DNA from: a candidate division LCP-89 bacterium
GTDB taxonomy: Bacteria; Electryoneota; B3-LCP
DNA length: 64,000 nucleotides
Reading direction: 5' to 3'
Assembly: GCA_025774555.1 (NCBI GenBank)
Contig: JALGVT010000006.1
Coordinates: forward strand, 46,158 to 110,157
In this document: positions 11,295-26,377 of the stretch, piece by piece
How the letters are laid out: each line of letters starts with the position of its first letter
How positions within the stretch are numbered: position 1 is the first letter of the stretch
Made by a program: the position numbers and the translations under genes
The notes under the pieces: model-generated
Told to the model about the DNA's origin: nothing
Databases searched by the model: none
The model's input: only the letters and a program-made list of their open reading frames with translations

Positions 11295-12128
11295 TTATGC
11301 ACCGCTTTTTTTCGTATCTACGGGGTTATCTTTTATTCCCGCCGCTTTACAAAAACACTCCATGTGAATCTGCCCGCCTCTGTGCAGAATCGTATCGCCC
11401 AATTCTGAGTCTTGTTTCATGCTTGCTGTGCAGGGGAAAGAGTGCCAATAGTGACTCACTTCAAACTGAAGATTGTCATTGACAGGACAGCCTTGCAGGC
11501 TGTGAGCAACGTAATGGCTGTTGCCGCAGGGAGCGCTGATCCTCGCGAATGCTCTAGCGATGCGCCCATCCAGTGAAGCCACTTCAAACTGAGGCTTGCC
11601 TATTTGGAAATGCTCAATAAAAGCGTCGATGACATCGCCTTCACCAGGTTTCAGATCACAGAACGGTTTTGGAACGGATACCTCCAATCCGCACTTTTCA
11701 GCGTTTTCAATCAGCTTTCCCTTTGCCCATCTGGAGACCCATTCTGGAGCTTCAACAGGGGCAATGATGGCTCTGCCGCCCGCTTCAGCACTATATTCCG
11801 GCAGATCGATCAATATCTCTTCGTGAATCTGAATGGCAATGAGGATATCGTGAGGCGGTAGTTTATCAGGCAGGTAATTATATTGCTTATCGAGGAGCAC
11901 GGGCAATAAAGATGGCAAGCGGATGATTCCGGCAATGTCATTACTGAAATCCTTCACGCGCCAATCCCTGCAGTGAAGGCACCGGTCCCCGCAGCCAGTG
12001 CAAAAATCACGTTCATTGCGGAGATGTTTAATGAAGCGATCCACCCAGGCGCTGTCGAATTGACGGTCGAAAGGTCCCGGGCGTTTACGGGGGTCCTTTG
12101 GGTGTGAACAGATGATGAGGAGTTTCAA
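11295..12128 (-). CDS. DUF166 family protein with extra CxxC-x3-CxxC motif
   Basis: PKPFC, SAPCG and PCTASM motifs, plus CTGCGDRCLHC; last gene of the acs cluster. Confidence 0.8.
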   Translation of the reverse strand: MKLLIICSHPKDPRKRPGPFDRQFDSAWVDRFIKHLRNERDFCTGCGDRCLHCRDWRVKDFSNDIAGIIRLPSLLPVLLDKQYNYLPDKLPPHDILIAIQIHEEILIDLPEYSAEAGGRAIIAPVEAPEWVSRWAKGKLIENAEKCGLEVSVPKPFCDLKPGEGDVIDAFIEHFQIGKPQFEVASLDGRIARAFARISAPCGNSHYVAHSLQGCPVNDNLQFEVSHYWHSFPCTASMKQDSELGDTILHRGGQIHMECFCKAAGIKDNPVDTKKSGA

Positions 12129-12163
12129 GGGATTTGTAATTGTTAAACATGAGATTGTTAAAA

Positions 12164-12450
12164 GCGTCAGGTCACATACGTCAGCCGACGGACAAGACCT
12201 GACGCAACGGATAACAAATAATGAGGAGTTTCAAGATTAACCGTGTTGTGGAGTTCCACCCGGGAATTAATTCCCGGGCTATTATGCTGCTGTCCCACTG
12301 AAGTGGGACGCTAAAAACTGTTGAAAGGTTATCGTGCTGTCAGGTCTCTGTACCTGACGCTAAAATTAAGGTAGCGCGGGGACTTGCCCCCGTTGTCGCC
12401 GGATTAAAATCCGACGCCCGACTTTCAGCTCAAGTCGCTGAAGCGACTAT
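12164..12450. repeat. Cluster of REP-like hairpins
   Basis: GCGTCAGGTC..GACCTGACGC, CCCGGGAATTAATTCCCGGG, GTCCCACTGAAGTGGGAC, AGTCGCTGAAGCGACT. 12288-12317 is identical to 19141-19170. Confidence 0.75.
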
Positions 12451-12476
12451 TGCGAATTAATGGGGATCGAAACTTA

Positions 12477-24414: not shown

Positions 24415-24443
24415 GGTTAATCTCCCTATATTGCAGTCTGTTT

Positions 24444-25229
24444 TTACGGTATTAAGGGTTTTGCCAGTGATGTAATGAACTGTTTAAAAGTCAGATAAGC
24501 CTGCATTTCTGTTTCCAGCTCGAGGAGATTCTGACCAGCTAACTCAGCGTCGAAAATAACATCGTCCTGCGGTATCATGCAAAAAGCCTCGAAGCGGTTC
24601 ATATCCAGGTGTTTTTCGATGGCATCGTGGACTCTCTCTTCGCTCCCGGCAGGAATGCGGTTCACAACTAAAAGGAAGCGTTCGATTTTATTTTTCAGTT
24701 TGTCTGCCAGGACTAAGACTTTCTCTAAGGTTTGCAGCGCTTTAACAGTTGGATCTGCCACCAGCAGCATAGTATCCACGTCTCGGCTGGTGCGGCGCGA
24801 GATATGTTCCATTCCGGCTTCACAGTCGAGGATGGTTACGCGGTAACTGCCGGTCAGGCGGTCGAGGTTGTCTCTGAGGAGGTTGTTGACGAAGCAGTAG
24901 CATCCTGGACCTTCGGGGCGTCCCATAGTGAGCAGATCGAAACCTGCCGCTTCTGTAACCGCTTCCTGCACTTTCAATTCAAGGTACTGCTGTTTGGGAA
25001 TGCCCGCCGGTATACCCCTTGCGACTGAGCGCGTGTCTTCCCTGATGCCGCCGATTGTCTCGTAGACGTCCAATCCCAATACGCCTGCCAGGGCGGCGCT
25101 GGGATCAGCGTCAACCGCGAGGATTGGCGTAAGCTTGTTTTCTAACAGGTGTCGGATGAGGAAAGCCGCGAGGGTAGTTTTCCCGACGCCTCCCTTGCCG
25201 ACGACAGCGATGCAGGGTGAGTCAGCCAT
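24444..25229 (-). CDS. cooC: CooC nickel-insertion ATPase
   Basis: GKGGVGKT, GRPEGPGCYC, DCEAGMEHISRRT. Confidence 0.95.
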   Translation of the reverse strand: MADSPCIAVVGKGGVGKTTLAAFLIRHLLENKLTPILAVDADPSAALAGVLGLDVYETIGGIREDTRSVARGIPAGIPKQQYLELKVQEAVTEAAGFDLLTMGRPEGPGCYCFVNNLLRDNLDRLTGSYRVTILDCEAGMEHISRRTSRDVDTMLLVADPTVKALQTLEKVLVLADKLKNKIERFLLVVNRIPAGSEERVHDAIEKHLDMNRFEAFCMIPQDDVIFDAELAGQNLLELETEMQAYLTFKQFITSLAKPLIP

Positions 25230-25303
25230 ATTCTACTGTTCACTATAAAATAGCGGTGAGCTGTTAAGCCCGCCGCTGGATGCTGTAATGATATATGCCA
25301 TGT

Positions 25304-26377
25304 TTAGACGGCTTTTTTGCGTTTTTTTGAGGCAATATTTTTTCGTACCAGCAGCGAAGTTTCAGATAAGAGTTGCAGCACCAGTTCTGCCTGGCTATAT
25401 TTCATAGTGCCCATGCCGCACGAAGGAGTTATCAGGCACTGCTTCAACAACTGCGACCTGGAAACTCCTTTATCCACCAGTATATCAATATAATTGAAGA
25501 AATTAGCCGTCAGCGATTTACTCGTTTCTTCTTCAATATTCCCCAGAGTTGGGACAATTCCCCAAGCCAGGACACCGCCCTTTTTCAGGTATCTTTTAAG
25601 CTCATCTATATAGAGGGTCATGCCTTGGAAGTAGTCATAAGCATCGAAATTAATGATGTCTGTTTCAGTCTCCATAACCAGCGACCAGTCGGTATTCCCA
25701 CAGCAATGAATGCCGGCTATCGCATTCTCCTGATGAACTGCGTCGATGACTTCACCGAGGTACTGGAGAACCTGCTCCTTCGTAAGATTGATAAATGCGG
25801 ATCCGAAGCTGGACAAATACGGTTCATCGATAAAAATAATTACGTTCGATTTAAGACGTTTAAGTTGCTGTACTTGCCAGCGCGTTTTCAGCACCAGTGA
25901 CTTTAATACAGCATCGAAGACTTCTTCGTTATAGATGATAGCGCGTTTGCGATGATCCGTGATCATCAGCCCAAAGCTGACTGGACCAGTGACCTGCCCT
26001 TTCACCCATTTCACCGATTCTGGTTTCGTTCTCCAGAGACGGTCCATGAATGCTTTAAATCCACGGGCGTAGGGTCTTTCGATGGCAAAATAGTCCAAGT
26101 CTTCTTCGATAACGCGTTCATAGAATTTCTCCAGTTCACCATAAATATCTCTCTGAAGATCCATGTGCATCTTCGATTTTTCAGGATCGAGATTCACAAA
26201 AGGTATTCCACCCGAAAACTGGATATACATTGATTCGAGGTAATCAGTGTTGGGGAGTTGGGGCCAGAGCGGAATTTCCGGGAGATACTGCAGCGCTAAT
26301 TCGACAGCATCATAGGGGTGGAGATGTGGAAAGCTGCCCACAGCAGCGGGGAGACACGCAGGTGTGAAACGCTTCAT
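25304..26377 (-). CDS. Core (single-barrel) MetE-like methionine synthase, MesB type
   Basis: VGSFPH, WPQLP, KGQVTGPVS, IFIDEP, Zn ligands GIHCCGN and ITPSCG. About 357 aa with no N-terminal folate-binding barrel. Start at MKRFTP. Confidence 0.85.
   Translation of the reverse strand: MKRFTPACLPAAVGSFPHLHPYDAVELALQYLPEIPLWPQLPNTDYLESMYIQFSGGIPFVNLDPEKSKMHMDLQRDIYGELEKFYERVIEEDLDYFAIERPYARGFKAFMDRLWRTKPESVKWVKGQVTGPVSFGLMITDHRKRAIIYNEEVFDAVLKSLVLKTRWQVQQLKRLKSNVIIFIDEPYLSSFGSAFINLTKEQVLQYLGEVIDAVHQENAIAGIHCCGNTDWSLVMETETDIINFDAYDYFQGMTLYIDELKRYLKKGGVLAWGIVPTLGNIEEETSKSLTANFFNYIDILVDKGVSRSQLLKQCLITPSCGMGTMKYSQAELVLQLLSETSLLVRKNIASKKRKKAV

Follow-up and report, generated by a model that had tools for sequence, protein, structure and literature searches.

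The CODH/ACS (carbon monoxide dehydrogenase and acetyl-CoA synthase) cluster described here occupies positions 11295-26377, on the minus strand, of a 64,000-nucleotide stretch of DNA from a candidate division LCP-89 bacterium (contig JALGVT010000006.1; the whole stretch is hereafter called the window). The cluster is headed by a gene for a predicted methionine synthase of the MesB/core-MetE type and contains no acsE. We consider it rather likely that the encoded proteins cleave acetyl-CoA, pass its methyl group via CoFeSP, the corrinoid iron-sulfur protein, to methionine, and oxidize the released CO in place, and that the cluster does not serve CO2 fixation. When CODH/ACS genes turn up in metagenome-assembled genomes (MAGs), the routine interpretation is CO2 fixation or acetogenesis. 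A mesB-led cluster that lacks acsE and fhs and includes a CooF-FNOR electron outlet would mark a heterotroph that obtains a methyl group by splitting acetyl-CoA and regains the CO in the form of NAD(P)H. Because this cluster type recurs in several phyla, its recognition would set right what has been deduced about the carbon cycle in many uncultured lineages.

In the proposed scheme, AcsB would cleave acetyl-CoA and deliver the methyl group to Co(I) of the CoFeSP, AcsCD. The MesB-type zinc enzyme would then transfer the methyl group from CH3-CoFeSP to homocysteine, forming methionine and regenerating Co(I), and the CO freed at the A-cluster would pass to CooS and be oxidized to CO2. Electrons would flow from CooF to the FNOR flavoprotein and on to NAD(P)+. 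Two CooC-type ATPases would mature the Ni centers, and the RACo activase, which is encoded elsewhere in the genome on contig C64, would keep CoFeSP reduced. The net reaction would be acetyl-CoA + homocysteine + NAD(P)+ + H2O -> methionine + CO2 + CoA + NAD(P)H. Such a module would be self-contained, with no need for AcsE, and would run beside the folate/MetH route, not instead of it. Its compact and complete gene set (ACS, CoFeSP, MesB, CODH, CooF, and FNOR) is well suited to a bench test of methyl transfer from CoFeSP to MesB.

Identity of the lead gene product

The lead gene most likely starts at an ATG at position 26377, which yields a protein of 357 aa; a longer version with a TTG start at 26416 is unlikely. 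The protein has no Pfam match, Meth_synt_1 and Meth_synt_2 included, and its sole NCBIfam match is a weak one (1.2e-7) to NF002119, which models archaeal methionine synthases. Its relatives number more than 7000. Searched by sequence against the PDB, neither the protein nor a profile retrieved a match. Its AlphaFold2 model (pLDDT 92) is a single barrel without an N-terminal folate-binding half. A Foldseek search with this model places MetE catalytic barrels first, followed by MesD (3rpd), UroD, and MtaA (4ay7).

The residue signature of the protein comprises S15, D184, H224, C226, D245, and C320. H224, C226, D245, and C320 form the His-x-Cys...Asp/Glu...Cys pattern of zinc ligands, and S15 and D184 correspond to the homocysteine-binding Ser and Asp. 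These columns are invariant in an alignment of 33 relatives, and the signature is present in 95 of 100 gathered sequences. The equivalent positions in the 343-aa MesB of Dehalococcoides mccartyi are given as S15, D177, H214/215, C216/217, D235/236, and C311/312 (PMC7857596, PMC7005905).

LCP-89, Zixibacteria, KSB1, and D. mccartyi are not among the rows in the supplements of PMC7857596. Proteins from the order to which a Dehalococcoidales-labelled MAG belongs (36 genomes) served as a proxy for the D. mccartyi protein DET0516. Matches to the lead protein occur in 34 of these genomes and fall into two groups. The first consists of 31 near-full-length proteins (286-325 bits, 40-47% identity) and one partial protein (234.5 bits); members that were inspected have 342-344 aa and exactly the published numbering (S15, D177, H214, C216, D235, C311). 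For orientation, the published thresholds for MesB are at least 130-173 bits to DET0516 itself (Price 2021, PMC7857596), whereas the scores here are to Dehalococcoidales proxies. The second group is more distant (118-142 bits, 29-32% identity). In a quick maximum-likelihood tree, the lead protein lies with the first group inside a clade of 97 rows that is split from the second group with an SH-aLRT value of 100%. The signature, the scores and numbering of the Dehalococcoidales proteins, the clade in the tree, and the MetE-like fold together place the lead gene product, as judged from sequence and model, among the MesB/core-MetE-type enzymes, as an initial annotation of the window had proposed.

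Proteins of the second Dehalococcoidales group (e.g., L110, L111, and L112) keep the zinc ligands and carry Ile in place of the homocysteine-binding Ser15. These paralogues may have a different thiol as substrate, or a different partner.

Methyl supply and direction of the pathway

The initial annotation had remarked that acsE, metF, folD, and fhs are missing from the window. This holds for all open reading frames (ORFs) of at least 100 aa in the window, none of which gave a Pterin_bind, MTHFR, FolD, or FTHFS domain. The absence of acsE and fhs extends to the source genome (3.37 Mb, 86 contigs, 94% complete), where Pterin_bind matches are confined to dihydropteroate synthase (DHPS) and MetH, both on other contigs, and FTHFS (Fhs) has no match. 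It also extends to a family sample of nine genomes from eight genera (drafts, 76-95% complete). AcsE-like ORFs and FTHFS are each found in none of the nine, and Pterin_bind matches there are only DHPS-like and MetH-like. A MesB-like gene and an MTHFR of MetV-MetF size are present in all nine, and CoFeSP (AcsC/AcsD) in eight. In other genomes, the same Pterin_bind search did pick up AcsE-like ORFs (276-312 aa, 56-83 bits). One of these ORFs adjoins acs genes, and its best NCBIfam matches are AcsE models; the search is therefore able to see AcsE. The control search for FTHFS was positive in 4 of 14 known genomes. The possibility that acsE and fhs are merely unassembled was rejected on the basis of the zero counts in the family.

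CoFeSP has only two known sources of a methyl group, methyl-tetrahydrofolate (methyl-THF) through AcsE and acetyl-CoA through ACS. Since AcsE was found nowhere in the family, any methylation of CoFeSP must come from cleavage of acetyl-CoA by ACS. Because cleavage is then the sole known means of methylating CoFeSP, the cluster is not evidence of autotrophy, and the earlier statement to that effect is supported by the genome and all nine genomes of the family.

The carbonyl side of the cluster points in the same direction. The CooS gene is the only CODH gene in the genome (a single match to PF03063), so CO can go only to this enzyme. AcsB retains its N-terminal CODH-binding domain (CODH_A_N). 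Downstream of cooS lie a DmsB-like CooF and then a NirB-like FAD/NAD(P) oxidoreductase (Pfam, NCBIfam), which is the gene order of CooS-CooF-FNOR clusters. NAD(P)H cannot drive the reduction of CO2 to CO; consequently, a CooF-FNOR outlet fits CO oxidation, and CooS-CooF-FNOR has been described as a putative CO-oxidizing unit (PMC6344411).

These observations bear on a conventional interpretation, in which the cluster is an ordinary Wood-Ljungdahl carbonyl branch that makes acetyl-CoA for autotrophy or acetogenesis, with MesB as a side outlet to methionine. AcsE and Fhs would then have escaped assembly or been replaced by non-homologous or moonlighting enzymes, such as the AcsE-like pterin domain of the short MetH. 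The genome does encode acetogen-type FolD and MetV-MetF, and the pterin domain of its MetH scores 294 bits (cut-off 259) on NF005719, a model of the methyl-THF:CoFeSP methyltransferase domain. The draft state of the family genomes also leaves room for missing genes, and CO2 fixation has been considered as a role of the corresponding cluster in Ca. Tritonobacter lacicola (Williams 2022, PMC9324843). However, an AcsE-sized Pterin_bind ORF and FTHFS are each found in none of the nine genomes, nine independent assembly gaps are unlikely, and 9 of 12 mesB-linked loci of other phyla likewise have no AcsE beside their ACS genes. Furthermore, the potential of the CO2/CO couple is out of reach for electrons delivered from NAD(P) through CooF-FNOR. 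Acetyl-CoA synthesis by a conventional branch is therefore unlikely.

Conservation, layout, and counter-evidence

Synteny in related genomes, which the initial annotation had suggested as a check, was compared by tblastn at six family loci (threshold 60 bits). The order histidine kinase-mesB-cooC-cooS-cooF-FNOR-...-acsB is kept in five of the six, FNOR included, and one complete locus continues with cooC2-acsD-acsC-DUF166. In L019, the cooC2 homologue is 69% identical and lies between acsB and acsD, and DUF166 occupies the same position as in the window. The OsmC gene is a variable member, found in L018 only. The C-terminal ~560 aa of the histidine kinase are encoded upstream of mesB in all six loci, even where CODH/ACS is gone, and this PAS/GAF kinase is a candidate regulator of the cluster. 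Two family loci also carry a molybdenum enzyme of the xanthine-dehydrogenase/aldehyde-oxidoreductase type with 2Fe-2S domains: in genome G003 it is inserted between cooF and FNOR (L022, 10466-13294), and in genome G008 it directly follows mesB (L023, 14158-16857).

Of 41 genomes sampled from the phylum, 10 have both MesB and CoFeSP, 1 (G008) has only MesB, 1 (77% complete) has only CoFeSP, and 29 have neither. Because these genomes are kin, the co-occurrence represents a few events and not 41.

The layout recurs under other phylum labels. A motif-based scan with one genome per species gave 80 loci of MesB relatives, out of an estimated ~1600 matching stretches; many contigs are short, and the layout counts are hence lower bounds. 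A cooS, acsB, acsC, or acsD gene lies within the flank of 16 of the 80 loci. The full row mesB-cooC-cooC-cooS-cooF-FNOR-acsB-acsD-acsC is present in L029, L064 (Acidobacteria label), and L077, and a partial row in L027 (Clostridia), L030 (Ca. Tritonobacter lacicola, Auribacterota), and L025 (Eisenbacteria); FNOR is found in L027, L029, L064, and L077. An AcsE-like gene occurs in only three of the 80 loci, all with Actinomycetota labels, and DUF166 in none. In five genomes with a mesB-headed row, an AcsE-sized Pterin_bind ORF is missing from four, and Fhs is present in three. MesB proteins that adjoin CODH/ACS tend to group together in the tree, next to the family of the window, with weak support (81-85). 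A different arrangement is seen in seven Anaerolineae-type loci (L043, L048, L053, L057, L059, L091, and L093), where two genes for CooC-like ATPases, ~3 kb apart, come after mesB on the opposite strand; a tblastn filter found no cooS or acsB between the CooC-like genes.

Several observations weigh against the proposal in its strong form. Full-length MetE was not found in the genome. Elsewhere, the genome encodes an 804-aa three-domain MetH, with the activation domain as a separate gene upstream of metH, and a MetV-MetF fusion and FolD lie on other contigs. A stand-alone homocysteine S-methyltransferase (302 aa) adjoins an MtgC-like corrinoid protein (215 aa) on contig C31 (locus L120, 7754-8662 and 8805-9452, minus strand), and contig C54 carries an MttB-family methyltransferase (locus L121, 1504-2991). 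These three proteins form a possible third homocysteine-methylating route, which resembles one proposed for Electryoneota (Williams 2022, PMC9324843). Given MetH with its activation protein, MetV-MetF, FolD, and the split homocysteine methyltransferase/corrinoid pair, the organism is not folate-independent and its methionine does not depend on the CODH/ACS cluster. The folate independence put forward for the cluster in the initial annotation thus does not extend to the organism. That annotation had also held that a complete methyl branch with acsE, together with metH, elsewhere in the genome would speak against its interpretation; half of this has turned up, namely metH, MetV-MetF, and FolD, while acsE and fhs have not. 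The alternative routes leave the need for a costly Ni enzyme complex in methionine synthesis unexplained, and the presence of MetH and a third system raises the question of why cells keep so expensive a route.

Other counter-evidence comes from the enzymes and from the layout. Transfer of the methyl group from CoFeSP to MesB is unproven even for the characterized Dehalococcoides enzyme (PMC7005905), and the direction of ACS in Dehalococcoides is itself deduced (PMC7005905, PMC7857596). The FNOR of CooS-CooF-FNOR units had no reported biochemical study as of 2019, and one such unit has been suggested to reduce CO2 (PMC6344411). Within the cluster, gaps of 137-348 bp allow for several transcription units. 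No SAM (S-adenosylmethionine), cobalamin, or other riboswitch was found with Rfam in the window or upstream of mesB. In G003 and G007, acsCD lie on contigs other than that of mesB-cooS-acsB. Finally, G008 has the kinase and a 50%-identical mesB with no CODH/ACS nearby and no CoFeSP match, which indicates that MesB can persist without CoFeSP.

The G008 pattern speaks for a reading in which the genes are co-regulated neighbors and not one pathway. MesB would be served by another corrinoid protein, such as the 215-aa MtgC-like protein loaded by an MttB-family enzyme; CooS-CooF-FNOR-OsmC would be a stand-alone unit for CO or oxidative stress, and ACS/CoFeSP would have a separate role. Operon-like spacing is indeed tight only from mesB to osmC, where cooF overlaps the cooS stop by 4 bases, with the larger gaps preceding acsB, cooC2, acsD, and DUF166. 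The genome encodes a further corrinoid protein as well as an MttB homologue, use of different corrinoid proteins has been noted as a possibility for some MesB paralogues (Price 2021, PMC7857596), and a CooS-CooF-FNOR cluster of Clostridium ljungdahlii responds to oxygen exposure (PMC6344411). Nevertheless, ACS/CoFeSP genes stand beside mesB in several phyla, 10 of the 12 genomes with either MesB or CoFeSP have both, and the CODH/ACS-linked MesB proteins cluster in the tree, albeit weakly. Mere co-location would also leave ACS/CoFeSP without any methyl partner, and we regard it as improbable.

Alternatively, the MesB-like enzyme would work in reverse, as a methyl-thioether:CoFeSP methyltransferase, with Co(I)-CoFeSP taking its methyl group from methionine or a related methyl-sulfur compound. 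ACS would then join the methyl group with CO made by CooS to form acetyl-CoA, which would give a protein fermenter a carbon gain and an electron sink. In favor of this, the cell already has other ways to make methionine, and in the absence of AcsE no methyltransferase other than the lead gene product is visible beside CoFeSP. Genes for secreted peptidases abound in the genome, and the fold family includes corrinoid:thiol methyltransferases such as MtaA. Moreover, methanogen methylthiol:coenzyme M methyltransferases demethylate thioethers onto Co(I). On the other hand, methyl transfer from a thioether to Co(I) runs uphill, CO2 reduction is poorly served by FNOR/NAD(P)H as donor, and genes for thioether uptake or methionine catabolism are absent from the cluster. 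The Ser and Asp that bind homocysteine are retained, and characterized MesB-type enzymes rapidly transfer the methyl group of methylcobalamin (methylcobamide) to homocysteine in vitro (PMC7005905). The probability of operation in reverse is low.

A broader speculation, to which we give only a slender chance, is that the AcsE-free set mesB-CODH-CooF-FNOR-ACS-CoFeSP, seen under at least five phylum labels, is a portable module that reversibly links acetyl-CoA with the thioether methyl pool. Its main role in protein-fermenting bacteria would be methyl exchange between methionine or methyl-sulfur compounds and acetyl-CoA, and not methionine biosynthesis, which MetH covers. If true, this would amount to a folate-free form of methylotrophic acetyl-CoA synthesis or cleavage.

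Cleavage of acetyl-CoA toward methionine, with CO oxidized in place, remains the reading that we favor. The absence of AcsE and Fhs, the position of the sole CooS between mesB and acsB, and the conserved layout bear out this part of the initial annotation; we infer each of the transfer steps and their direction from these features. The genes themselves and their coordinates are collected in Table 1.

Table 1. Genes of the mesB-led CODH/ACS cluster and its upstream neighbor, with positions in the window
Predicted product	Position	Strand	Basis
MesB/core-MetE-type zinc methyltransferase (predicted), lead gene, 357 aa	25304..26377	-	Residue signature, Dehalococcoidales likeness, predicted fold
CooC-type Ni-insertion ATPase beside cooS	24444..25229	-	CbiA/AAA_31 P-loop; position kept in 5 family loci
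CooS, Ni-CODH catalytic subunit	22489..24414	-	TIGR01702, 638.9 bits (cut-off 478)
CooF-like 4Fe-4S electron-transfer protein (DmsB-like)	21983..22492	-	Fer4_11, TIGR02951-like
FNOR-type FAD/NAD(P) oxidoreductase	20681..21967	-	Pyr_redox_2, Pyr_redox, Rubredoxin_C; NirB N-terminal-like
OsmC-family protein, variable member	20249..20671	-	PF02566, NF008009-like
280-aa ORF without family, probably outside the core	19206..20048	-	Low-GC 2-kb bin
AcsB, acetyl-CoA synthase	16879..19068	-	NF040764, 992.8 bits (cut-off 800); CODH_A_N, CdhC, ACS_CODH_B_C
Second CooC/AcsF-like ATPase	15912..16682	-	CbiA/ParA-type P-loop
261-aa ORF, weak DUF3800	14972..15757	-	PF12686, 24 bits; lowest-GC bin of the cluster
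AcsD, CoFeSP small subunit	13838..14809	-	NF003376, 394.7 bits (cut-off 280)
AcsC, CoFeSP large (corrinoid + 4Fe-4S) subunit	12477..13829	-	NF003195, 527.9 bits (cut-off 306); FeS and CdhD domains
DUF166 protein, end of cluster	11295..12128	-	PF02593, 155 bits
PAS/GAF sensor histidine kinase, upstream neighbor of mesB	26539..30189	-	Pfam

All 11 genes named in the initial annotation are present, co-directional, and located as it described them (Pfam, NCBIfam); its list overlooked the 280-aa and 261-aa ORFs. Neither of these has a tblastn match above 60 bits in the six family loci. The 280-aa ORF has no Pfam, NCBIfam, or PADLOC match, and PADLOC likewise returned nothing for the 261-aa ORF, DUF166, or OsmC. 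Their lower GC content, the lack of a counterpart in the family loci, and the lack of a family match, apart from the weak DUF3800 hit, suggest that the two ORFs are probably recent, lineage-specific inserts.

Upstream of the cluster, the histidine kinase ORF overlaps by 88 bases another PAS/GAF ORF at 30102-31544 (minus strand). The overlap implies that the kinase may be part of one frameshifted gene, or that its true start lies later. A hairpin with a T-run is found at 26436-26422, between the kinase and mesB; promoter and terminator scans are not informative for this lineage. Farther along the window, positions 59088-62706 (plus strand) hold genes for molybdenum cofactor biosynthesis (MoaA, MogA/MoaB-like, MoaC, MOSC, and MoeA). 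The regions 54744-58946, 40797-42878, and 47771-49726 encode large secreted proteins that end in sorting tails for type IX secretion, among them a gingipain-like C25 peptidase, and these proteins suggest a proteolytic bacterium of the FCB (Fibrobacterota-Chlorobiota-Bacteroidota) group.

Comparison with known systems

In the canonical acetogen acs operon of the Moorella type, acsE lies beside acsCD. The LCP-89 cluster shares with it CooS/AcsA, AcsB with a CODH-binding domain, AcsC, AcsD, and CooC/AcsF. It differs in that acsE is missing from both cluster and genome, fhs is missing as well, and mesB, cooF, and FNOR are added.

The closest functional parallel is the incomplete Wood-Ljungdahl pathway of D. 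mccartyi, which includes the core-MetE/MesB protein cbdbA481, equivalent to DET0516 (Deobald 2020, PMC7005905; Price 2021, PMC7857596). Both systems combine AcsB and AcsCD with the absence of AcsE, both have a MesB-type enzyme with the same zinc and homocysteine residues, and the same route from acetyl-CoA through CH3-CoFeSP to methionine is proposed for both. In contrast to the LCP-89 cluster, with its built-in CooS-CooF-FNOR, D. mccartyi is described as having no CODH, so that CO escapes (PMC7005905). D. mccartyi is also reported to lack MetF, MetH, and MetE, which leaves MesB as its only methionine synthase, whereas the LCP-89 genome encodes MetH, MetV-MetF, and FolD outside the cluster; the D. 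mccartyi mesB sits with genes of the SAM cycle, whereas the LCP-89 mesB leads the CODH/ACS genes (PMC7005905).

Some methanogens have mesB-acsC-acsD operons, which have been read as evidence for direct methyl transfer (Price 2021, PMC7857596). The physical proximity of mesB to CoFeSP genes is common to these operons and the LCP-89 cluster. However, methanogens have archaeal Cdh-type complexes and a full C1 branch, whereas the LCP-89 genome combines a bacterial AcsB with CooS, CooF, and FNOR and has no AcsE or Fhs.

The electron outlet resembles the CooS-CooF-FNOR clusters of Geobacter sulfurreducens and Clostridium, in which cooS, a DmsB-like CooF, and a NirB-like oxidoreductase are regarded as a CO-to-NAD(P)H unit (Inoue 2019, PMC6344411). 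Those units stand alone and act on external CO, whereas that of LCP-89 is placed between mesB and acsB, with CooS as the sole possible partner of ACS.

Ca. Tritonobacter lacicola (L030) has the same cluster type, arranged as mesB-cooC-cooC-cooS-cooF...acsB, and its MesB groups near the family of the window. Its authors considered CO oxidation with Ech, or CO2 fixation, and kept a Dehalococcoides-like role for relatives without CooS; the available text does not mention a core methionine synthase (Williams 2022, PMC9324843). Neither the open-access papers and bioRxiv preprints searched nor PMC13056359, searched by term, yielded a description of a CODH/ACS cluster that is headed by mesB, lacks AcsE, and includes CooF-FNOR. 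The core idea is already in print for Dehalococcoides, as is the placement of mesB next to acsCD in methanogens. The LCP-89 cluster differs in having CODH and its CooF-FNOR outlet in the same cluster, mesB in the lead, a retained folate/MetH route, and a layout that recurs across phyla.

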